Positions 3,451-13,650 are shown, counted from the first letter of the stretch. The stretch: 64,000 nt of DNA from Promethearchaeota archaeon (GCA_019058245.1 JAHPZJ010000013.1:169166-233165), one strand, 5' to 3'. Numbers and translations are program-made. The notes: generated by a model from the letters alone, not told the origin.

Positions 3451-4629
3451 TTGCCTGATATAAAAATAGAAGATACAGTTATTCTTTTAGATACTTCTAG
3501 ATCTATGTTGAGAAAAGATTTTAAACCAAGTAGATTAGTGATTGAATTACAAACAGTTAAAAATTTCATTCAATCAAAATTATCAATAGATATGAAAGAT
3601 AGAATATCAATAATTTCTTTTGGGGGAGTTTCTAAAAAATTGGTTGATTTTACATTTGAAGTAGATAAGTTAATTAAAGCATTATATAAAATTCAAATAT
3701 CAGGTCGCGGAAATTTACATGAAGGGATTGCCTTTGCCTTACAAATATTGGTCGAAGAGATGCGAAAAATTGGTGGAAAGACTTCCCGTATTTTGATTAT
3801 AACTGATAACAAGTTAAATATTGATACAAATAGAATAATTAAATTGGTTAATATAGCAAAAGGTTTAGGTGTAATTATTGATTCTTGTCAGTTAGGAGGA
3901 GACGAAGACTATGGAGATTATTCTTTAAAAAGAATAAGTCAACGTACTGAAGGAGAATATGGACATTTTGATAATTCAAAAGCAATTATTAGTGCTGGTA
4001 AAACCTTTGCTTCAAAAAAAGATGTTAAGGAAACTTACGATTATTTTTCTCAAGATAAAAAAGATAAAATTGCACCTCTAGTAAGTGAAATTGCATTACC
4101 ATTAAGAAGACCAACTCTATTAGATATTAGGTTAATGATGGGGGGAACTAATAAAGGACAAGAAAAATGCCAAATTTGTCATTCCGTTAAATCAGCGGTT
4201 ACAGGAGCAGGTTTTTTTAGTGAGGGCCGCTACTGTCCAAGTTGCGATCGTGCAATGCATCTTTCTTGCGCTGCGATGTGGGCTAAGAGGACAGAATATA
4301 AAGAAAATGTATTTAGATGCCCTTTTTGTTTTTTCCTTCTGGAATTACCAAGAGCAGCATTAAAATTGATTAAAGGTGAAATAAAAGAATTTCAAGAAAA
4401 AATAATTATTGATGAAAATGAAAAGTCAATAACAAAAATGATTTTAATATCTAATGAAGAAGTAGATAAAATTGACTCATCATGTTCATATTGTAATAGT
4501 ATTTTTTTAGGGGATTTTAAAGTTTTTCAATGCGAAAATTGTAATGCATATTATCATGAACCTTGCTTGGAAAAAATGAAAAAAGAAATTAAGGCATGTA
4601 GGTATTGTGGAGCAAAAATTACGTCATAA
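3451..4629 (+). CDS. VWA domain protein (Ssl1/p44- or Rpn10-like) with two C-terminal C4HC3 RING/PHD-like zinc fingers
   Basis: DTSRSM..DFKPSRL VWA start; CQIC..CPSC..HLSC..CPFC and CSYC..CENC..HEPC..CRYC. Confidence 0.8.
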   Translation: MPDIKIEDTVILLDTSRSMLRKDFKPSRLVIELQTVKNFIQSKLSIDMKDRISIISFGGVSKKLVDFTFEVDKLIKALYKIQISGRGNLHEGIAFALQILVEEMRKIGGKTSRILIITDNKLNIDTNRIIKLVNIAKGLGVIIDSCQLGGDEDYGDYSLKRISQRTEGEYGHFDNSKAIISAGKTFASKKDVKETYDYFSQDKKDKIAPLVSEIALPLRRPTLLDIRLMMGGTNKGQEKCQICHSVKSAVTGAGFFSEGRYCPSCDRAMHLSCAAMWAKRTEYKENVFRCPFCFFLLELPRAALKLIKGEIKEFQEKIIIDENEKSITKMILISNEEVDKIDSSCSYCNSIFLGDFKVFQCENCNAYYHEPCLEKMKKEIKACRYCGAKITS

Positions 4630-4707: not shown

Positions 4708-6762
4708 TTGATTAAATTAGGGAATAAAAAACGATCAAAGTGGATTATTACTTCAGCATGGCCTTATGTAAATGCAATACCTCATTTAGGCAATTTAATT
4801 GGAAGTACTTTATCAGCGGATGTATTTGCTCGTTTTTTAAGAATGAAAGGGGAAGAAGTGGTATTTGTTTCCGGATCGGATTCTCATGGAACTCCTGTTT
4901 CTATAGAAGCAAAAAAGTTAAAAGTTCCGGCAGAAGAACTGGCATTTAAATATCATAAGATTATTAAAGATTTGCACGAGAAATGGCAAATCTCTTTCGA
5001 TAATTACACAATAACACATAATCCAATACATATTGAATTTGTCCAAAAAATGTATTTAGATATACAAAAAAACGGTTATATTATTGAAAAAGAAAATGAA
5101 TCATTATATTGTGAGACTGATGACTTATTTTTACCCGATCGTTTTGTAGAGGGGACATGTCCTCATTGTAATTTTGAGGATGCTAGAGGAGATCAATGTG
5201 ATTATTGTCAAAAATTATTAACTCCTTTAGAACTTATTAAACCTAAATGTGCTGTTTGTGGCAATACTCCGACTGTCAAAAAAACAAAACATTGGTATTT
5301 AGATCTGCCAAGATTACAAAATAGATTAAGAGATCTAATTGAAAAAAATGAAATTATCCCTGTTAATGCTCGACAAATGTGTTTAAATAGTATAGATGAA
5401 GGTTTACCCGAACGAGCAATAACACGGGATTTAGAATGGGGAATACCCGCTCCATTTAAAAATGCAGAAGGTAAGACCATATATGTGTGGTTTGAAGCAG
5501 TATTGGGATATATCACAGCCGTTAAAGAATGGGCAGAGAAAATAATTAATGAACCAGATAAATTTGAATATTTTTGGAATGATTCTAATACTAAAACAGT
5601 ATACTTTATAGGTAAAGATAATATCATTTTCCATTTGATCGTTTTTCCTGCATTAATATTAGCATATAATGATAATAAAAAAGAAGGGAAAAAACTCGTA
5701 TTACCTTACAATGTTTCATCAACAGAATGGTTAATGTACGAGAACACTAAATTTTCAAAATCAAGGGGGATAGGCATTTGGATTGATGATGCTCTCAAAT
5801 TAGCGCCATTAGATTATTGGAGATTTAATCTAATCTATAATAGACCCGAAAAAAGTGATGCTTCATTTTTATGGTCTGAATTTGAAAATAATATAAAAAT
5901 GCTAAACGATGTTATAGGTAATTTTATTCACAGATCATTAACATTTATAAATAAGCAATTTAATAGTACAATTCCAAAAAGAATAGAATTAGATAATATT
6001 GATAAGGATTTTATTCTAAAAATTGAAGAGATATCTGGAAAGATAGGAGGTTTACTAGAGAATTTTGAGTTAAGAAAGGCACTAAGGGAAATTGTGAATT
6101 TTGGTAGAGAAGGAAATATCTTTTTAAACGATAAGGCTCCTTGGCATCTAATAAAAAAAAATAAAAATGCAGCAGGGCAAGTTTTTAATTTATGTGCTCA
6201 AGCTGTTTACGCATTAGCAATTCTCTTGGGACCATTCATTCCTGAAACATCGAATAAAATTTTAAATTTTCTCAATGTTAATGAACCTATAGAAGAATTA
6301 AGTTGGTATAGTATTAAAGATAATGTACTTAAAGAGGGACATAAATTAAAAATTCCAGAACCACTTTTTCAAAAATTAGATATTACAGAATTAATCTCGA
6401 AATTAGAAACTGTAAAAAAAACTGAAAAAGGTGAGAAAGAATTGGTATCATATGAAGAATTTAAAAAATTAGATATAAGAGTCGCATTAATAGAAAATAT
6501 TGAAAAAGTTCCTAAAGCTGATAAGCTCTATAAATTATCTATTGATTTGGGAAATGAGAAAAGAACTCTAGTTGCTGGATTGGCTGAATATTATAAACCA
6601 GATGATTTAAAAGGAAAAAAAATAATTGTTTTAACTAATTTAGAACCAAGAAAATTAAAAGGAATTTTAAGTGAAGGAATGCTTCTTGCAGCAGTAGATG
6701 GTGATAATGTATCAATTTTAGTACCTGATAAAGATTTACCTCTTGGAGCTAGAATTGAGTAA
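4708..6762 (+). CDS. metG: Methionine--tRNA ligase with C-terminal tRNA-binding (EMAP/Trbp111-like) domain
   Basis: PYVN..HLGN (HIGH), zinc knuckle CPHC/CDYC/CAVC, YVWFEA, GKDN, KFSKS (KMSKS); C-terminal LDIRV..NLEPRKLKGILSEGMLL. Confidence 0.97.
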   Translation: MIKLGNKKRSKWIITSAWPYVNAIPHLGNLIGSTLSADVFARFLRMKGEEVVFVSGSDSHGTPVSIEAKKLKVPAEELAFKYHKIIKDLHEKWQISFDNYTITHNPIHIEFVQKMYLDIQKNGYIIEKENESLYCETDDLFLPDRFVEGTCPHCNFEDARGDQCDYCQKLLTPLELIKPKCAVCGNTPTVKKTKHWYLDLPRLQNRLRDLIEKNEIIPVNARQMCLNSIDEGLPERAITRDLEWGIPAPFKNAEGKTIYVWFEAVLGYITAVKEWAEKIINEPDKFEYFWNDSNTKTVYFIGKDNIIFHLIVFPALILAYNDNKKEGKKLVLPYNVSSTEWLMYENTKFSKSRGIGIWIDDALKLAPLDYWRFNLIYNRPEKSDASFLWSEFENNIKMLNDVIGNFIHRSLTFINKQFNSTIPKRIELDNIDKDFILKIEEISGKIGGLLENFELRKALREIVNFGREGNIFLNDKAPWHLIKKNKNAAGQVFNLCAQAVYALAILLGPFIPETSNKILNFLNVNEPIEELSWYSIKDNVLKEGHKLKIPEPLFQKLDITELISKLETVKKTEKGEKELVSYEEFKKLDIRVALIENIEKVPKADKLYKLSIDLGNEKRTLVAGLAEYYKPDDLKGKKIIVLTNLEPRKLKGILSEGMLLAAVDGDNVSILVPDKDLPLGARIE

Positions 6763-8007
6763 TTATAATTTCAGTGAGAATAATGGATTTAATCGAGCTA
6801 TGATTTCTCCAAGATCTAATTGAATTGTTTTAAGAATAATATCCCGACCTCTATATTCAAATTGTAATTCACTTACATTCCTAATTATTTTTAGTCTACT
6901 TATATTTGTTTTTAAAGAAGTAACAAAATATCTCTGATCCTTGTAATCTAAAATATCTAAAACGTCTTTAATGTCATTAAAAGAATATCCTCCCCCATGA
7001 GGAAGAATACAAGCATTTGTCAATAATTCTATAAGTTCTAATTCTTCTGCCCGTTCAAAAAAGTTTTCATTTTTTAATGTTGTCTCAGATAAATTTTTTT
7101 TTCCTTGGAATAAATAAGCCGAAATATCTGCCCTGAGTGTTGTTGGAAAAATGTTTGACTTTATTAAATTACAATCAATGTCTGTACAATTACTTCCCAT
7201 GTACATATTATTATAATCCTTTAAAAATTGATGAGATTGATTACAAATTGTTTTATATCCATAATCAAATAGATTATCAGCGATGATTTCTCTTTTTTTA
7301 TTAGAAAATTTAATAGCTTTTTTGTTAAAATCAAGGTATTCTTTCGCGACAGAATCTAATAAAATATATTGTTTACCCAATTTGGTATCTTCTTCAATCG
7401 CAAGTTCTTTTAATGTTTTTGATTTGTCAATATATAATCCAATCCCATTTTCGTCATCCCTAAATTCTGGTGCACTACCATGGATTAAGAACACATAGGG
7501 TGGAAGTTCTATATTGGATAAATTCTTTGTTTCAAAACAATTAATAAAATGATTTGATATATCATAATCCCAATTTATCAAAATATCATTGTGATAAAGC
7601 TCTTTTGACTTAATTATATCAATTTTCTTAATTAATGTATAAGGATCTGGAATTTCTTCCAAACCACCAACTAATATACCACAACAATTGGGTTTTGTGT
7701 TAAGGAAAATTAATTTTTCATTTCCATTTCCCCAATTTAGTCGACCCCCATATCCTAGACCAGAATTCCATCTAAACTTATTTCTTGAGATTGTCTCATC
7801 AGGAGACGATATGAAAGTTGCTTTTGGGTCAATTCCATATTTTTGTTGAATAAGTTGGAAGGAGGCTAAGCCATATTGCATATTAGCGCGGCATAATTTT
7901 GAGGTGGCATCATTTAAACCAGTTGAAAAAATGAATTGACTTGCTCTATCTAATAAATCTACTTTTGAAAGTGCCGATATTTCTGGAGAGAGGATTGAAG
8001 AATCCAT
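6763..8007 (-). CDS. Divergent RtcB-family (RNA ligase-like) protein
   Basis: Ordered motifs SPD..GLGYGG, NCCG, SNHFI, IHGS, SHQ, PHGGG and C-terminal LNP...K parallel the RtcB motifs PD.H..G, DINCG, GNHF, HTGS, AHN, HGAG, LRP...KG. Confidence 0.65.
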   Translation of the reverse strand: MDSSILSPEISALSKVDLLDRASQFIFSTGLNDATSKLCRANMQYGLASFQLIQQKYGIDPKATFISSPDETISRNKFRWNSGLGYGGRLNWGNGNEKLIFLNTKPNCCGILVGGLEEIPDPYTLIKKIDIIKSKELYHNDILINWDYDISNHFINCFETKNLSNIELPPYVFLIHGSAPEFRDDENGIGLYIDKSKTLKELAIEEDTKLGKQYILLDSVAKEYLDFNKKAIKFSNKKREIIADNLFDYGYKTICNQSHQFLKDYNNMYMGSNCTDIDCNLIKSNIFPTTLRADISAYLFQGKKNLSETTLKNENFFERAEELELIELLTNACILPHGGGYSFNDIKDVLDILDYKDQRYFVTSLKTNISRLKIIRNVSELQFEYRGRDIILKTIQLDLGEIIARLNPLFSLKL

Positions 8008-8142: not shown

Positions 8143-8766
8143 ATGAATACTTCGGATGATTTTGTATTATTTGACTCATTAAAATCTATAAGAATTAATG
8201 GAGAATTCACAGGCTCTATTGTATCAAAATATAAGAATAAAGTAATCTTTTCAGATAATATTAAAATTTCAGATTCTGAAGGAATTATGATATCTGAAGG
8301 ATTAATTACCGGTTTTGAAAAGGTGGGAATGGAATTAAATCCAATTTCTAGAAAAGTTGATTTAAAATGGGATTTAAACGATACTTTATTAGAATATTGC
8401 GTCATAATCCCTGAAGATACAATGGAGCAATATGATCAAGGACAATTTTCAAATGAACTCCCATATACTATTAATCTACTTCATACAGCAACCTTACTTT
8501 TAAATAATCACGAAAGTAAGCTCAATCATTTAGATTTTTTCAAAGGAGAGATTTTAAAAAATCCTATAGCAATGATTAGGAATGGCATTATAATTGCTGA
8601 TAGAGTTGTAATCGATGATAATGGAGACCCCGTTTTTTATGATTGCTTGATTGTGGGAAGAGATGAGAATGAAGATATTAATATAAGTTATGAACCAATT
8701 ACTAACGTTGATGATAAAATGCTTGAATATATTATAATATTAGGTATTGAGGAATTAAAAATTTAA
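8143..8766 (+). CDS. Hypothetical protein (acidic)
   Basis: 207-aa ORF, co-oriented with the downstream ATPase; no recognised motif. Confidence 0.6.
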   Translation: MNTSDDFVLFDSLKSIRINGEFTGSIVSKYKNKVIFSDNIKISDSEGIMISEGLITGFEKVGMELNPISRKVDLKWDLNDTLLEYCVIIPEDTMEQYDQGQFSNELPYTINLLHTATLLLNNHESKLNHLDFFKGEILKNPIAMIRNGIIIADRVVIDDNGDPVFYDCLIVGRDENEDINISYEPITNVDDKMLEYIIILGIEELKI

Positions 8767-8783
8767 AATCATCTTGAACTAAA

Positions 8784-10004
8784 ATGCTCCTTTTTGAGAA
8801 TAAAGAACAAAAATTGCTAAATCTCCTAAACTTTACCGGATCACCGTTTAAAAAGTTTGTTTCTACAGGAGAAATCGAAGAAGATATTGGATTAGTCCAA
8901 TCAAGAGAAGAATTCTTACATTCTATCATCAGCATATTAGATAAAAATGAAAATGTCATCCTGCCAATTATTGGAGACGTTGGAACTGGAAAAACCCATC
9001 TATATTGGGCTTTAAAGCATGAGTTATATTATTATAATATTGTCTTTATTTCCTTAGAAAATGTTGTTAAGAAATTTTATTACAATATATACTCTGAATT
9101 CATAGAAAATATGGGTATAGACATTTTAAGAAATATTTCTCGAAGATTGTGTAATAATTGGGGTGCTTTAGAAAGAAAATTTGGTTTTTTTCATGTAGCA
9201 GAAATTAATAAGGTTAAGAAAGTTGCTTGTGAAGAATGGGCACCTAAATTCGAAAATGAAGAATCAATTATGGATATTATAAATGCAATAACAGCTCATC
9301 AATTAGATCCATATAAAAAAATAGAAGTTGAAAGATGGTTTTTGGGAGAAGTAATAGATATAAGGGATCTTTCAAGATTGAACTTAAAAAATGATTTAAG
9401 AAAAAGGGATAATGCATATACTATGCTTAAAGTACTAGTTGAAAATGCCATGGTAAATAGTGTATTATTCATAGATGATTTCGAGAAAATTGTCTCAATG
9501 ATGAAACCTATACCAATAGAAGAACAAAAAGAAGAAGTTTTTGACAAAAGTTGGCTTTATGGGAGTAGTGAATCACCTCAAAAACGTTCTGCTAATAAAA
9601 TATTAGATAAAATTGTGAAATTAAATAATATAAATGGTTTAAGAATTATTATTACATTAAAGTCATTTGATTTTTATGAAGAAATCATACGAAAATTTGA
9701 AGACATAGACTCCAATCTTTTAAAACTAATAAAAAAACCTATCATCCTATCTAATTTTGATGATGATGATGTTTTCACATTTTATAAAAAAAATTTAGAA
9801 TTTTTTTTTGGTCATCTCAATTATTTTGATTATTTTCGAGATTTTTCCCAGTCTTATTTTCCCCTAAACAAAGAAGTATTAAAAAACATTTTTATCCAAA
9901 CGAAGGGTAATCCTAGAGAAATAATAAAGTTTTTAATAAAAATTTTTAATGACATCATATTTTCAAATGAAGAATTAGAAGAAATTCTTAAAAAATATCA
10001 GTAA
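8784..10004 (+). CDS. P-loop ATPase (AAA+/STAND-like, BrxD/DUF2791-like architecture)
   Basis: Walker A GDVGTGKT, Walker B LFIDDFE, C-terminal TKGNPR. Confidence 0.75.
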   Translation: MLLFENKEQKLLNLLNFTGSPFKKFVSTGEIEEDIGLVQSREEFLHSIISILDKNENVILPIIGDVGTGKTHLYWALKHELYYYNIVFISLENVVKKFYYNIYSEFIENMGIDILRNISRRLCNNWGALERKFGFFHVAEINKVKKVACEEWAPKFENEESIMDIINAITAHQLDPYKKIEVERWFLGEVIDIRDLSRLNLKNDLRKRDNAYTMLKVLVENAMVNSVLFIDDFEKIVSMMKPIPIEEQKEEVFDKSWLYGSSESPQKRSANKILDKIVKLNNINGLRIIITLKSFDFYEEIIRKFEDIDSNLLKLIKKPIILSNFDDDDVFTFYKKNLEFFFGHLNYFDYFRDFSQSYFPLNKEVLKNIFIQTKGNPREIIKFLIKIFNDIIFSNEELEEILKKYQ

Positions 10005-10014
10005 TTCAATTTAT

Positions 10015-10749
10015 TTATAAATTCTTTAAAATTATTTTTTCATATATATCTATTTCTTTAAAATAATTATCTTTATATCCAATTTCCCAATTTGAATTTG
10101 AAATTCTTTGCCGCAATGATTCTAAATTAAGCACAGATCTAAAATATAATAATAATATGATTCTAATCGAATGTGACTTTAAAATTTTGTAGTTCTCTAA
10201 TTCATCTAAAGCATTAAACAAATAATCTAAGTCTGGAAAAAATTTACTTAATATTTGTGTGCAGAGTGTTTCTAAATCAGAATCCTTTGAATTTAATATT
10301 CGAAATAAATTCTTTTTCATACTATTTGGAAATTCTTTTAAATTTAAAATTACTCGAAGAGCATTAATTTTAATTGGAGTATAATCATCATTTATAGCAT
10401 TATTTATTAAGTCTATAACTGGGTCAGTTATATCAGAATTTGCAGTAATTTTTTCAATCGCTTGCATTATCTCATTTCGAATCCATCTATCTGATGTATA
10501 ATAGGCCTCCAATAAAAATGTTAGATACTTCTCATTTAATATTGTTGTTTTACCAATCTCTCCTATAAAAAATATTAAATTTATTTTGACCTTATTAAAA
10601 ATCTGTTTATTTAAATTCTGAATTAAGTAATCTATATATATTAGATAATCCTTATTTGGGTTTTCACTTATTTTTATTAAAAAATCATTTATAACTTCTG
10701 GATCTTTGGCATCTTTTATTTCTTCAAAGTCCTTATTCAAAAATTCCAT
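10015..10749 (-). CDS. HEAT/ARM-like repeat protein
   Basis: Amphipathic helical repeats: FFIGEIG, DRWIRNEIMQAIEKI, DDYTPIKINALRVI. Confidence 0.7.
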   Translation of the reverse strand: MEFLNKDFEEIKDAKDPEVINDFLIKISENPNKDYLIYIDYLIQNLNKQIFNKVKINLIFFIGEIGKTTILNEKYLTFLLEAYYTSDRWIRNEIMQAIEKITANSDITDPVIDLINNAINDDYTPIKINALRVILNLKEFPNSMKKNLFRILNSKDSDLETLCTQILSKFFPDLDYLFNALDELENYKILKSHSIRIILLLYFRSVLNLESLRQRISNSNWEIGYKDNYFKEIDIYEKIILKNL

Positions 10750-11181: not shown

Positions 11182-13650
11182 TTAATCACATATAATCGAA
11201 AATATTGGTTCCTCCATCTTAGGTTCAGATTTCATCTCTAATTCCATTAATTGAACTAAACGGAGTGCTTCATACCTTGCTTTCTTAGGATCGAGACCTG
11301 TTTGGTTTACGATCTCTGTAATAGTACTAGGACCTTGAAGTGATATATAGTTTAAGACTTGTTGTCTTGGAGTTTTTTCAAATTTCATCAATTCACGTTT
11401 AGTTTTCAGGTTAATAGCATCTTTCAAAGCTTCCTCGTCAACTTTTCCTTGTTCGAATAAACCTTTTTTAATAGCATCTTCAACAAGCTTTTTGCCTCGT
11501 TCTGTCCATACTAACACTGTAGTATAGCCTTCTTTCGAACCTACCTCACCAGCAGTAAGATCTGAATATATGGCAGGGAAATCTTGACAATGAGAACAGA
11601 AATGATTACAACTTAGACATCTTCGAGCTTCTTGTAAAGCCATTTCTTCATTAAACATCTGATCAATTTCATCAAAATTCCAATTAATCTCTTCAGTTGC
11701 TGCGTCTAAAGTTTCTGGTTTCAGAGAATAATCTTTTGGAGGTTTCTTAGGGCCTGTAAAAAATGATTTATCTATCTTATATCTTCCTTCCATCAAATTC
11801 TCTCCCTTTAAATATCTATCAATAGAAATTGCTGCTTCTTTTCCATGAGCAATTGCAGCAATAGCTACAGCTTTAGAATTACTAATAATATCTCCACCAG
11901 CAAAAACTCCAGGAATATTAGTTTCAAACGTTATTTCATTTACTTTAATTCTATTTCGCTCTTTTTCTAATTCATTATTTGTTGCAACATCTATCTGTTC
12001 GAAATCTACGGCCTGACCGACTGCTATTACAATGGAATCAACAATTATTTTATAATCCGATCCTTCAATTTTATTTAATGGTCTCCTTCCATTCTTATCG
12101 GGATTACCCCATTCAATATTATAACAATTTAAAACTAATTTTTCATCTCTATCCTGAGTAATTTTAGAAGTGGAAGTCGTGAAGTGAAAATTTATAAACT
12201 CCATTTCATTTTCAGGAATATCTCTTAAGACCAATTCAAGTTGTTCTTTTGACATGATATCAACAAGATGAACTTTTTCAGCACCTAGTCTAAGAGCCGT
12301 TTGAGCAACATCAACTGCAACTGCCCCTCCTCCAATTATGCCTAAAGTTTTACCTTTAAATTCTTCTTTATTTTCCCAGTATCGATATTTTCTATCCATC
12401 AGGAAATGAATTGCCACATGCACATTTGGTAAATTTTCACCTTCTAAGTGTAAAGTACGAGGTTTATATTGTCCAGTAGCAATAAATATAGCCTCAAATC
12501 CTTCATTATTCAAATCTTTAATAGTCATCTCAGGACCCAATGGTTTATTTAGTTTTACTTCGACACCAGAATCTATGATTCTACCTACATCATAATCTAG
12601 TACATAATTAGGTAATCTAAATTGTGGTACACCAAATCTTAGCATTCCTCCAATTTGATCTGTCTTTTCAAATATTGTAGGGGCATAACCCTTTCTCCTT
12701 AAAAAATATGCCGCTGTTAATCCCGCTGGTCCGGATCCAATAATTGCTATTTTTTTAGCATTTTTAGGTAATTTGGCGTTTACTTTTGCTCTATTTTTAG
12801 CACTTTCAATTTCCCATTCAGTAACAAATTTTTTTAATTCACGAATCGCAACAGGATGATCATCTCCAATTAATGTACAACCATGTTCACACTCATTTGT
12901 ACAAATTCTTCCACATATAGAGGGAAGTGGATTGTTTTCTCTAATTAAGTCTACAGCATCTTGATATTTGCCTTGACGTATTAATGAAATATAGCCTTGA
13001 GCATTAACACCAGAAGGACAGCCATTGCAACATGGAGAACAAACTAAGCCTTTATCAGTTTGTTCTGTTCTCATTTGGGAACTACAAAATAAACCAATTT
13101 TTAAAATTTCTCTATTCATTTCTTCTTCAAGATCAGCAGCTCCACGCATTTCACATGGTACACCTACAATACCAATTGGATCAAATGTTTTCCCTGTAAG
13201 TTCTACTAATCGTTTTAGGACACCAGATCTACCATAAATAACACCAGCTTTTTGGATTACTTCATTAGGATCTGACACAATCTCGGCTGCAGGCTTCTCA
13301 TCTTCTTCTTGAACCATTACAACCTCTTTAATAGATTTACTTCCTAACAATTCTTTAACAAAAGTAGTTACAAATCCTCCACTTGAAGCTTTCTTTAAAA
13401 TATCTGGATCTTTACTTCTTAACGAATAAATCGCAAAGGGTTGCTCCTTTTTAAATTTTTTCTGGATTACTTGAGGACAATTTTGATAACATTTTCCACA
13501 ATCTTGCCCATCTCTTTCTAATATACAATAGTCTTTTAAAGTAGGACGTCTTAGATCCATTTCAATATGTTTACATGAACCAGCACATAATCCACATCCT
13601 TGACATAGACCGGCATCTATAATTTCTTGTCTTAATAATTCAAAACTCAT
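11182..13650 (-). CDS. Mosaic oxidoreductase: 2x[4Fe-4S] + FrhB/FdhB-like domains with an inserted GltD/NfnB-type FAD/NAD(P)H module + C-terminal wHTH-like segment
   Basis: CQGCGLC/CGKCYQNCP; FrhB motifs SSGGFVT, VGVPCE, IGLFC; inserted CPSG..CGRIC..CEHGC, GSGPAGL, GGGAVAVD, FAGGD, EARRCLSC; then the FrhB C-terminus resumes with CSHCQDF..DLTAG..GYTTVLVWTERG. Confidence 0.8.
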   Translation of the reverse strand: MSFELLRQEIIDAGLCQGCGLCAGSCKHIEMDLRRPTLKDYCILERDGQDCGKCYQNCPQVIQKKFKKEQPFAIYSLRSKDPDILKKASSGGFVTTFVKELLGSKSIKEVVMVQEEDEKPAAEIVSDPNEVIQKAGVIYGRSGVLKRLVELTGKTFDPIGIVGVPCEMRGAADLEEEMNREILKIGLFCSSQMRTEQTDKGLVCSPCCNGCPSGVNAQGYISLIRQGKYQDAVDLIRENNPLPSICGRICTNECEHGCTLIGDDHPVAIRELKKFVTEWEIESAKNRAKVNAKLPKNAKKIAIIGSGPAGLTAAYFLRRKGYAPTIFEKTDQIGGMLRFGVPQFRLPNYVLDYDVGRIIDSGVEVKLNKPLGPEMTIKDLNNEGFEAIFIATGQYKPRTLHLEGENLPNVHVAIHFLMDRKYRYWENKEEFKGKTLGIIGGGAVAVDVAQTALRLGAEKVHLVDIMSKEQLELVLRDIPENEMEFINFHFTTSTSKITQDRDEKLVLNCYNIEWGNPDKNGRRPLNKIEGSDYKIIVDSIVIAVGQAVDFEQIDVATNNELEKERNRIKVNEITFETNIPGVFAGGDIISNSKAVAIAAIAHGKEAAISIDRYLKGENLMEGRYKIDKSFFTGPKKPPKDYSLKPETLDAATEEINWNFDEIDQMFNEEMALQEARRCLSCNHFCSHCQDFPAIYSDLTAGEVGSKEGYTTVLVWTERGKKLVEDAIKKGLFEQGKVDEEALKDAINLKTKRELMKFEKTPRQQVLNYISLQGPSTITEIVNQTGLDPKKARYEALRLVQLMELEMKSEPKMEEPIFSIICD

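Follow-up and report, generated by a model that had tools for sequence, protein, structure and literature searches.

What kind of enzyme is a protein that carries the hallmark residues of the RNA ligase RtcB, in RtcB order, and bears the name hypothetical protein? The question is raised by a 414-residue open reading frame, hereafter the RtcB-like gene, in a 64,000-nucleotide stretch of DNA (the window) from a Promethearchaeota archaeon (GCA_019058245.1 JAHPZJ010000013.1:169166-233165) whose genome has a G+C content of 28%. A preliminary description made from the window had proposed that the gene encodes a highly divergent RtcB of a distinct subfamily. A script located all of the motifs on which that proposal was built: S68-P69-D70, P106-N107-C108-C109-G110, S151-N152-H153-F154, I175-H176-G177-S178, S258-H259-Q260, P336-H337-G338-G339-G340 and K413-L414-stop. 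We find that the RtcB-like proteins form a family of their own within the RtcB superfamily, in which the periphery of the active site is remodelled and which neither Pfam nor NCBIfam captures.

Predicted fold and family membership

We modelled the RtcB-like protein with AlphaFold2 on an alignment of 51 sequences (A1, relatives 22–73% identical), to which all residue counts given below refer. The model had a mean predicted local distance difference test score (pLDDT) of 95.9 and a predicted template modelling score of 0.93. When it was compared with the PDB by Foldseek, the best 13 among the entries listed were all RtcB (probability 1.0, best E 3.6e-8). All-against-all alignment with VIA-align ranked Thermus thermophilus RtcB (2epg_B) first, with Z 21.6 and a root-mean-square deviation (rmsd) of 3.3 Å over 301 residues, and the next chain scored Z 5.0. 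Re-alignment of the Foldseek matches placed ten RtcB entries, from P. horikoshii, human, zebrafish and Thermus, at Z 18.5–21.9 and rmsd 3.3–3.5 Å over 301–320 residues, with 11–13% identity in the structural alignments, against Z 5.3 for the next fold. The match spans residues 15–414 of the model and 16–481 of the P. horikoshii enzyme. A structure other than an RtcB fold was what the preliminary description had named as counting against its proposal; the predicted structure instead shows a whole-length RtcB fold.

Sequence profiles lead to the same family. When all PDB sequences were searched with a profile of the RtcB-like family, the top four matches were RtcB sequences (E 0.012), and NHF and the next His fell on P. 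horikoshii N202/H203 and H234. Alignment by hhalign with 20 canonical Asgard RtcBs (E 6.4e-4) paired NHF, H176, H259 (the His of RtcB 'HN'), H337 (the His of HGAGR) and the C-terminal Lys with their RtcB counterparts. The profile also retrieved canonical RtcBs in Asgard genomes through the same central stretch (E 1e-4 to 1e-5), and in the ESM Atlas the family bridges to a cluster that is partly RtcB. Pairwise BLASTP against the genome's own RtcB detected no significant similarity, a global hhalign run returned a meaningless alignment and the N-terminal 135 residues alone gave no significant hhalign match; P69-D70 paired with the canonical 'LPD' only in a non-significant alternative hhalign alignment. 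Since the N-terminal third cannot be aligned significantly, the equivalences of D70 and C109 rest on the collinear fold match and on a local pattern in which, in the model, the motif is followed by a β strand.

A word-seeded search through 5.8 billion proteins brought up 690 homologs, of which 120 were listed. These have 409–415 residues (nearly all 414 or 415) and are mostly 76–95% identical at 100% coverage; as had been anticipated, each bears the source name 'hypothetical protein', and they come from Promethearchaeota/Lokiarchaeota or other Asgard metagenome-assembled genomes. The other searches, too, returned no named copy with a different label. An exhaustive phmmer search of 1.84 billion cluster representatives returned 228 clusters, with identity down to about 25%. 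The protein had no match in Pfam, PF01139 included, even at E 10, and the single faint RtcB match in NCBIfam (NF007153, E 0.17) scored 10.8 bits, below the cut-off of 407. Weak PF01139 matches occurred in only five of the 51 relatives (best E 0.007). Among the papers covered by a full-text literature search, none describes the family, which merits its own hidden Markov model so that annotation can name its members.

Conserved core, remodelled periphery and a canonical counterpart

H153, F154, H176, H259 and H337 are invariant in the alignment, and N152 (50/51), D70 and P69 (49/51 each) and C109 (47/51) are nearly so. Because the four His are invariant, and C109, D70 and N152 nearly so, across relatives that share as little as 22% and at most 73% identity, the motifs shared with RtcB are, on this alignment, not due to chance. 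This is a genuine gene, held under strong constraint.

The structures of RtcB allow these residues to be placed. In RtcB, Mn1 is bound by Cys98, His234 and His329, and Mn2 by Asp95, Cys98 and His203; His404 bears guanosine monophosphate (GMP), Asn202 touches the 5′-OH and the GMP phosphate, and Arg238, Arg190 and Gln194 grip the phosphates of the 5′-OH strand (PMC8051266, PMC10630183). All counterparts of the Mn1 ligands are kept, namely H176 and H259 in 51 of 51 sequences and, as the probable bridging Cys, C109. The Mn2 set is incomplete: H153 and C109 are kept, and the Asp95 position is P106, which is Pro in 38 of 51 sequences and otherwise V, S, T, I or A, never acidic; the adjacent N107 is Asn in 45 of 51. 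The counterpart of the nucleophilic His404 is H337, which lies within PHGGGY, where G338 and G340 are each present in 50 of 51, and the Arg of HGAGR (Arg408) is replaced by Y341 (Tyr in 41 of 51). The change of the Asp of DxxC to Pro (PNCC), to which the preliminary description had pointed, and that of HGAGR to HGGGY are real and conserved.

Other contacts are kept in part or lost. H259 is followed by Q260 (Gln in 36 of 51), where RtcB has HN. The residues that contact the 5′-OH polynucleotide are not retained as a set: N152 is kept, and the positions of Arg190, Gln194 and Arg238 are N140, I144 and P180. Position 180 is variable (S in 14, P in 13, D in 4 and R in 4 sequences, among others), and the next residue, E181, is Glu in 44 of 51. 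In human RTCB, guanine is contacted by Glu230, Ser409, Lys504 and Glu470 (PMC8668186), which in our own mapping correspond to Glu206, Ser385, Lys480 and Glu446 of the P. horikoshii enzyme. The Lys480 counterpart, K413, is Lys in 33 and Arg in 6 of 51 sequences, the two Glu counterparts are variable (position 156 for Glu206, with N in 15, E in 12 and D in 10; position 380 for Glu446), no counterpart of Ser385 was located, and Y385 is Tyr in 44 of 51. The segment between the Cys and NHF has 43 residues compared with about 104 in P. horikoshii, a deletion of roughly 60, and the family is acidic, with a median isoelectric point (pI) of 6.2 compared with 8.4 for canonical Asgard RtcB. Overall, the family retains the catalytic core of RtcB but not its polynucleotide-binding periphery. 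Judging by the homology of positions, taken from the profile alignments and the collinear fold match, the Cys and His residues probably converge on one metal site, as the preliminary description would require.

We next asked whether the genome also encodes a canonical RtcB, a check that had been suggested at the outset. It does: a canonical gene (E 4.6e-170) lies on contig 25 with archease immediately beside it. Because the genome holds both canonical RtcB and archease, the RtcB-like gene is an extra paralog and not a replacement. This coexistence, together with an RtcB fold and conserved altered residues, upholds the proposal of a distinct subfamily. Among 201 Asgard genomes, canonical RtcB is present in 192 and the RtcB-like family in 85; within the window's own Lokiarchaeial family the latter is found in 39 of 40 genomes. 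A scan of one genome per species, with an eight-sequence sub-alignment as the query, found 196 relatives. The archaeal carriers are Altiarchaeota, Hadarchaeota, Hydrothermarchaeota, Bathyarchaeota, Methanocellales, Methanohalarchaeum, Korarchaeota, Woese-/Nanoarchaeota and all Asgard classes, and the bacterial carriers Actinomycetota, Chloroflexota, Aerophobetes, Halanaerobiales and Bipolaricaulia.

A separate observation concerns canonical rtcB. Members of one Asgard genus (g32, family f19) carry in this gene a 30-nucleotide insert with an in-frame stop between LPD and AHQGYGF of that essential motif, which reads TLPD[T*RESPHLRE]AHQGYGF. It occurs at four loci: L145:301-1635 (G047:C58:3702-5036), L146:301-1635 (G064:C175:3989-5323), G070:C93:302-1636 and G088:C483:124-1458. 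The RNA would form an exon–exon helix, a 4-bp helix with putative cut sites 2 nucleotides 3′ of each strand, and an inner hairpin that shows compensatory changes between two genomes; its minimum free energy is −25.7 kcal/mol (z −3.8, with 0 of 200 shuffles as good). The insert looks like a bulge-helix-bulge intron in the RNA ligase's own mRNA, in which case RtcB would be required to splice its own message. A literature search found no report of such an rtcB intron.

The features of the locus are collected in Table 1. The stops of the RtcB-like gene and metG adjoin with zero gap, as first described (metG TAA at 6760-6762), but the two genes converge and their touching stops therefore carry no information on co-transcription. 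A functional linkage to metG was rejected, given the convergent orientation and a synteny confined to close relatives (L045, L053). In the window lineage there is no operon around the RtcB-like gene: metG is convergent and two genes of no known function, conserved only in close relatives, are divergent. The promoter and terminator scan used a σ70 model and is uninformative for an archaeal host.

Table 1 Features of the RtcB-like gene and its neighbours in the window
Feature	Position	Strand	Basis or remark
RtcB-like open reading frame, 414 residues	6763..8007	-	start ATG 8005-8007, stop TAA 6763-6765
metG, methionyl-tRNA synthetase with C-terminal tRNA-binding domain	4708..6762	+	Pfam tRNA-synt_1g, E 6.7e-144
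P69-D70, proposed counterpart of RtcB PD(A)H motif (P. horikoshii Asp65 region)	7798..7803	-	putative equivalence
P106-N107-C108-C109-G110, counterpart of RtcB D95-I-N-C98-G	7678..7692	-	fold match and local pattern
N152-H153-F154, counterpart of RtcB GSG-N202-H203-F	7546..7554	-	PDB profile search, hhalign
H176-G-S-A-P-E181, counterpart of RtcB H234-T-G-S-R238	7465..7482	-	PDB profile search, hhalign
H259-Q260, counterpart of RtcB H329-N330 (Mn1 ligand)	7228..7233	-	hhalign
P336-H337-G-G-G-Y341, counterpart of RtcB H404-G-A-G-R408	6985..7002	-	hhalign
K413-L414 C-terminus, counterpart of RtcB Lys480 (guanine contact)	6766..6771	-	model C-terminus aligns to P. horikoshii 481
207-residue protein (no family) and 406-residue weak AAA/STAND-like ATPase	8143-10004	+	divergent from RtcB-like gene

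Three further genes of the window deserve mention in their own right. Upstream of metG, a position conserved in related Lokiarchaeia, lies a gene for a 392-residue protein of eukaryote-like architecture (3451-4629, plus strand), which has zinc fingers of the PHD-finger and C1/RING-like types in addition to an N-terminal VWA domain that Ssl1-like and Tfb4-like TFIIH models also match. Adjoining the divergent pair is a 244-residue HEAT/adaptin-N-like repeat protein (10015-10749, minus strand). An 822-residue fusion (11182-13650, minus strand) joins FrhB_FdhB N and C domains, which resemble the β-subunit of F420-hydrogenase/dehydrogenase, to a GltD-like Fer4_20 and pyridine-nucleotide-disulphide oxidoreductase module.

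Gene partners and candidate reactions

We examined the gene context of the RtcB-like family at 101 loci. Outside the window lineage several partners recur on the same strand at short gaps. The most recurrent, an HD-domain protein of about 215 residues, is found in eight lineages across the family tree, bacterial and archaeal, and its profile is closest, over nearly the full length, to Lin1889 (3b57, E 4e-21) and Bacillus subtilis YpgQ (5dqv, E 6e-21). YpgQ is a Mn-dependent pyrophosphohydrolase of (deoxy)nucleoside triphosphates (PMC8177086). Asgard HD matches fall into two tiers, of which the strong one (E ≤1e-70) occurs in 15 genomes, 14 of them with the RtcB-like gene. The HD gene is a same-strand neighbour in five genomes (G098, G134, G143, G152 and G170) and a divergent neighbour in two (G089 and G094), and lies 1.8 kb off in another (G027). 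In Asgard family f7, seven of 43 genomes have the RtcB-like gene and the same seven have a strong-tier HD protein, the other 36 having neither, and the two genes are adjacent in five of the seven. We dropped the window genome's own HD match (E 2e-35) as a partner since it belongs to the weak tier, which is common in Asgard genomes without the RtcB-like family.

An ATP-grasp partner of 445 residues, of the glutathione-synthetase/glutathionylspermidine-synthetase type (model pLDDT 86, Foldseek E 8.5e-12), occurs in five lineages, often beside an AstE/AspA- or M14-like amidohydrolase. The window genome has a strong homolog elsewhere (E 9e-108). In Lokiarchaeia it forms an operon (G000:C6:84037-87954, L143:4613-8530) of a Clp1_P kinase (407 residues), the ATP-grasp protein (480 residues) and a 384-residue protein of no known function, which is conserved in five Lokiarchaeial genera (also L138-L142), is headed by a GNAT acetyltransferase in five other genomes (four further genera) and has an α/β hydrolase converging on it. 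Within Asgard this ATP-grasp protein is found only in the window's family (f1, 36 of 40 genomes), and it was therefore rejected as a general companion.

Other partners were seen in particular lineages. Altiarchaeota and Hadarchaeota have an AP_endonuc_2 TIM barrel (13 loci), family f5 and f14 loci have Metallophos and GDPD proteins, and Hod-/Heimdallarchaeia have a GalT/HIT-like protein that is transcribed divergently. A second, very divergent RtcB-like paralog on a long tree branch occurs in some genomes of the window's genus (L048:6671-11870 and L049; G171:C9, G195:C2). It overlaps the end of a 426-residue gene of no known function and is directly followed by a MobA-like nucleoside triphosphate (NTP) transferase and a 485-residue DIPPS-like CDP-alcohol phosphatidyltransferase. 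One member (P0148) is fused to an APH/choline-kinase-type kinase, and at one Actinomycetota locus (L058) the gene immediately upstream, read in the same direction, encodes a Clp1_P kinase (CLP1_P, E 6.5e-35). Many one-off neighbours look like housekeeping genes and were set aside, as they form no regular arrangement (NAD(P)HX repair, alanine racemase, FolB, ETF, a ThiL-like protein, arginine decarboxylase with deoxyhypusine synthase, and tRNA m1A methyltransferase).

On this evidence we lean towards regarding the RtcB-like protein as an active enzyme of a distinct RtcB-superfamily family, a transferase or ligase that would form a histidine–nucleoside monophosphate (His–NMP) intermediate and act on a phosphate other than that of tRNA, most likely one that is small-molecule or peptide-/nucleotide-linked. 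Both its chemistry and its substrate are inferences. A metal-bound NTP would yield a His337–NMP adduct, as in RtcB, and the NMP would then pass to a phosphomonoester to give a phosphoanhydride, X-pp-N. This could be the end product, a cap, or could be attacked by a hydroxyl to leave a phosphodiester. The substrate is unlikely to be the tRNA or RNA 5′-OH strand of canonical RtcB because Arg190, Gln194, Arg238 and the Arg of HGAGR are absent, some 60 residues are deleted and the proteins are acidic. Loss of the strand-binding Arg residues, the acidic pI, the fusion to a small-molecule kinase and a neighbourhood of GDPD, CDP-alcohol transferase, ATP-grasp and amidase genes all speak for a small phosphorylated substrate.

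The YpgQ-like HD protein, the most robust partner across the phylogeny, may be the one that reverses the reaction, removing the cap, in many lineages; since it is homologous to an enzyme that cleaves an α–β phosphoanhydride, it fits a pair that caps and de-caps. Metallophos (ApaH) and HIT/GalT-like proteins (Ap4A phosphorylase, aprataxin, DcpS) are classic superfamilies that cleave nucleotide phosphoanhydrides. The HD superfamily likewise includes a phosphoanhydride cleaver, YqeK (PMC8177086). Phosphoanhydride cleavage would unify three otherwise different neighbours, Metallophos, HD and HIT/GalT-like. A bolder version, which we think less likely than not, is that a single RtcB-like protein caps small phosphorylated molecules with a nucleotide and, in some lineages, joins them to a hydroxyl as phosphodiesters, and that a YpgQ-like HD, ApaH-type Metallophos or GalT/HIT-like neighbour removes the nucleotide.

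Several points weigh against an active His–NMP enzyme with a small substrate. Its active-site geometry and nucleotide binding are predictions from sequence and fold comparison. The Mn2 Asp, which in RtcB helps to hold the γ-phosphate of guanosine triphosphate (GTP), is lost, and the first step may differ or be gone; the guanine contacts are only partly kept, so the nucleotide may not be GTP. No operon partner exists in the window lineage, so that the gene context is borrowed from relatives 25–45% identical, and the strong-tier HD partner was not found in the window genome, where HD matches are of the weak tier only. The neighbourhoods are also heterogeneous, which suggests that subfamilies may differ in substrate. 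Finally, Clp1-type polynucleotide kinase, HD, Metallophos, HIT and Endo-IV-like TIM barrel partners have precedents at nucleic-acid ends.

The last point leads to the strongest alternative, which we consider possible but doubtful: that the protein is a nucleic-acid end enzyme, specialized in capping or sealing RNA or DNA 3′-phosphates during repair or processing, with partners that heal or de-cap ends. All characterized members of the RtcB fold act on polynucleotide 3′-phosphate ends, and the HD, Metallophos, HIT and AP_endonuc_2 superfamilies all include nucleic-acid-end enzymes. E. coli RtcB itself caps DNA 3′-phosphates with GMP (PMC8051266). N152, which corresponds to the Asn by which RtcB anchors the 5′-OH, is almost always kept, and the Lokiarchaeial ATP-grasp partner sits inside a conserved Clp1_P operon. 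Direct linkage to Clp1, however, with the kinase immediately upstream, is seen at the Actinomycetota locus only. The residues that would grip a strand (counterparts of Arg190, Gln194 and Arg238) are not conserved, the Cys–NHF segment has lost roughly 60 residues and the median pI lies well below that of canonical RtcB. The APH-type kinase fusion and the GDPD, CDP-alcohol transferase, glutathione-synthetase-like ligase, AstE-like amidase and GGT neighbours likewise point to small molecules.

It is improbable, in our estimate, that the protein is a repurposed metal-dependent hydrolase or cyclic phosphodiesterase, using the Cys/His site with neither NTP nor His–NMP, like the 2′,3′-cyclic phosphodiesterase half-reaction of RtcB. 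Replacement of the Mn2 Asp by Pro, loss of the HGAGR Arg, the partial conservation of the guanine contacts and the predominance of hydrolases among the partners would agree with such an activity; but PHGGGY with H337 is the best-conserved stretch of the family, which is hard to explain unless that His has a role, and both Y385 and the Lys480 counterpart K413 are mostly retained. A non-catalytic relic, whether pseudoenzyme or scaffold, would account for the missing metal ligand and the several missing substrate-binding Arg residues, but is very unlikely given four invariant His and nearly invariant Cys, Asn and Asp across archaea and bacteria at 22–73% identity, and very high sequence conservation within Lokiarchaeia.

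To our knowledge, RtcB is the only enzyme family that joins 3′-phosphate to 5′-OH ends through His–GMP, and every characterized member of which we know works on polynucleotides. A role in capping small phosphorylated molecules would give the RtcB fold its first substrate that is not a polynucleotide. It might also mean that Asgard and other anaerobic archaea have a new route to a signal, cofactor or solute linked to a nucleotide. The identity of the substrate would either extend RtcB chemistry to a new substrate class or define a new nucleic-acid end-processing pathway, and would show what a highly conserved gene does in those archaea that are most closely related to eukaryotes.

Comparison with known systems

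Canonical RtcB (PF01139; 1uc2/4dwq/4dwr, 2epg, human 7p3b/8odo) shares with the RtcB-like protein a whole-length fold, as predicted. In both, the bridging Cys, three metal-binding His, Asn, Gly-loop His and C-terminal Lys follow one another in one order and are similarly spaced. The RtcB-like protein differs in being about 70 residues shorter, only 11–13% identical and without a PF01139 match. Asp95 is Pro, HN is HQ, Arg238, Arg190, Gln194 and Arg408 are not kept, and the protein is acidic rather than basic. Its gene has different neighbours and does not lie beside archease.

Extra RtcB paralogs are also found in RNA-repair operons, such as E. coli RtcB2-PrfH, in which they are described as RNA ligases that repair cleaved 16S rRNA (PMC9223846, PMC13166195, PMC6514570). 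Among the annotated neighbours of the RtcB-like gene there is no release factor, although no search was aimed at PrfH. The RtcB-like family differs from RtcB2 in escaping the Pfam RtcB model and resembles it as a second RtcB-type gene whose job would be other than tRNA splicing.

Phosphodiesters are also made by pairs of enzymes, an NTP:X-phosphate nucleotidylyltransferase followed by a CDP-alcohol/LPPG-type transferase, as in IPCT/DIPPS, CofC/CofD and CobU/CobS. The folds of these enzymes are unrelated to RtcB, and a link to the RtcB-like family would be one of analogy together with one gene neighbourhood. The logic is that of the RtcB active site, with X-P and NTP giving X-pp-N, from which Y-OH then yields X-p-Y and NMP, and the neighbourhood is that of the second Lokiarchaeial paralog, directly after which come the NTP-transferase and the DIPPS-like CDP-alcohol transferase.

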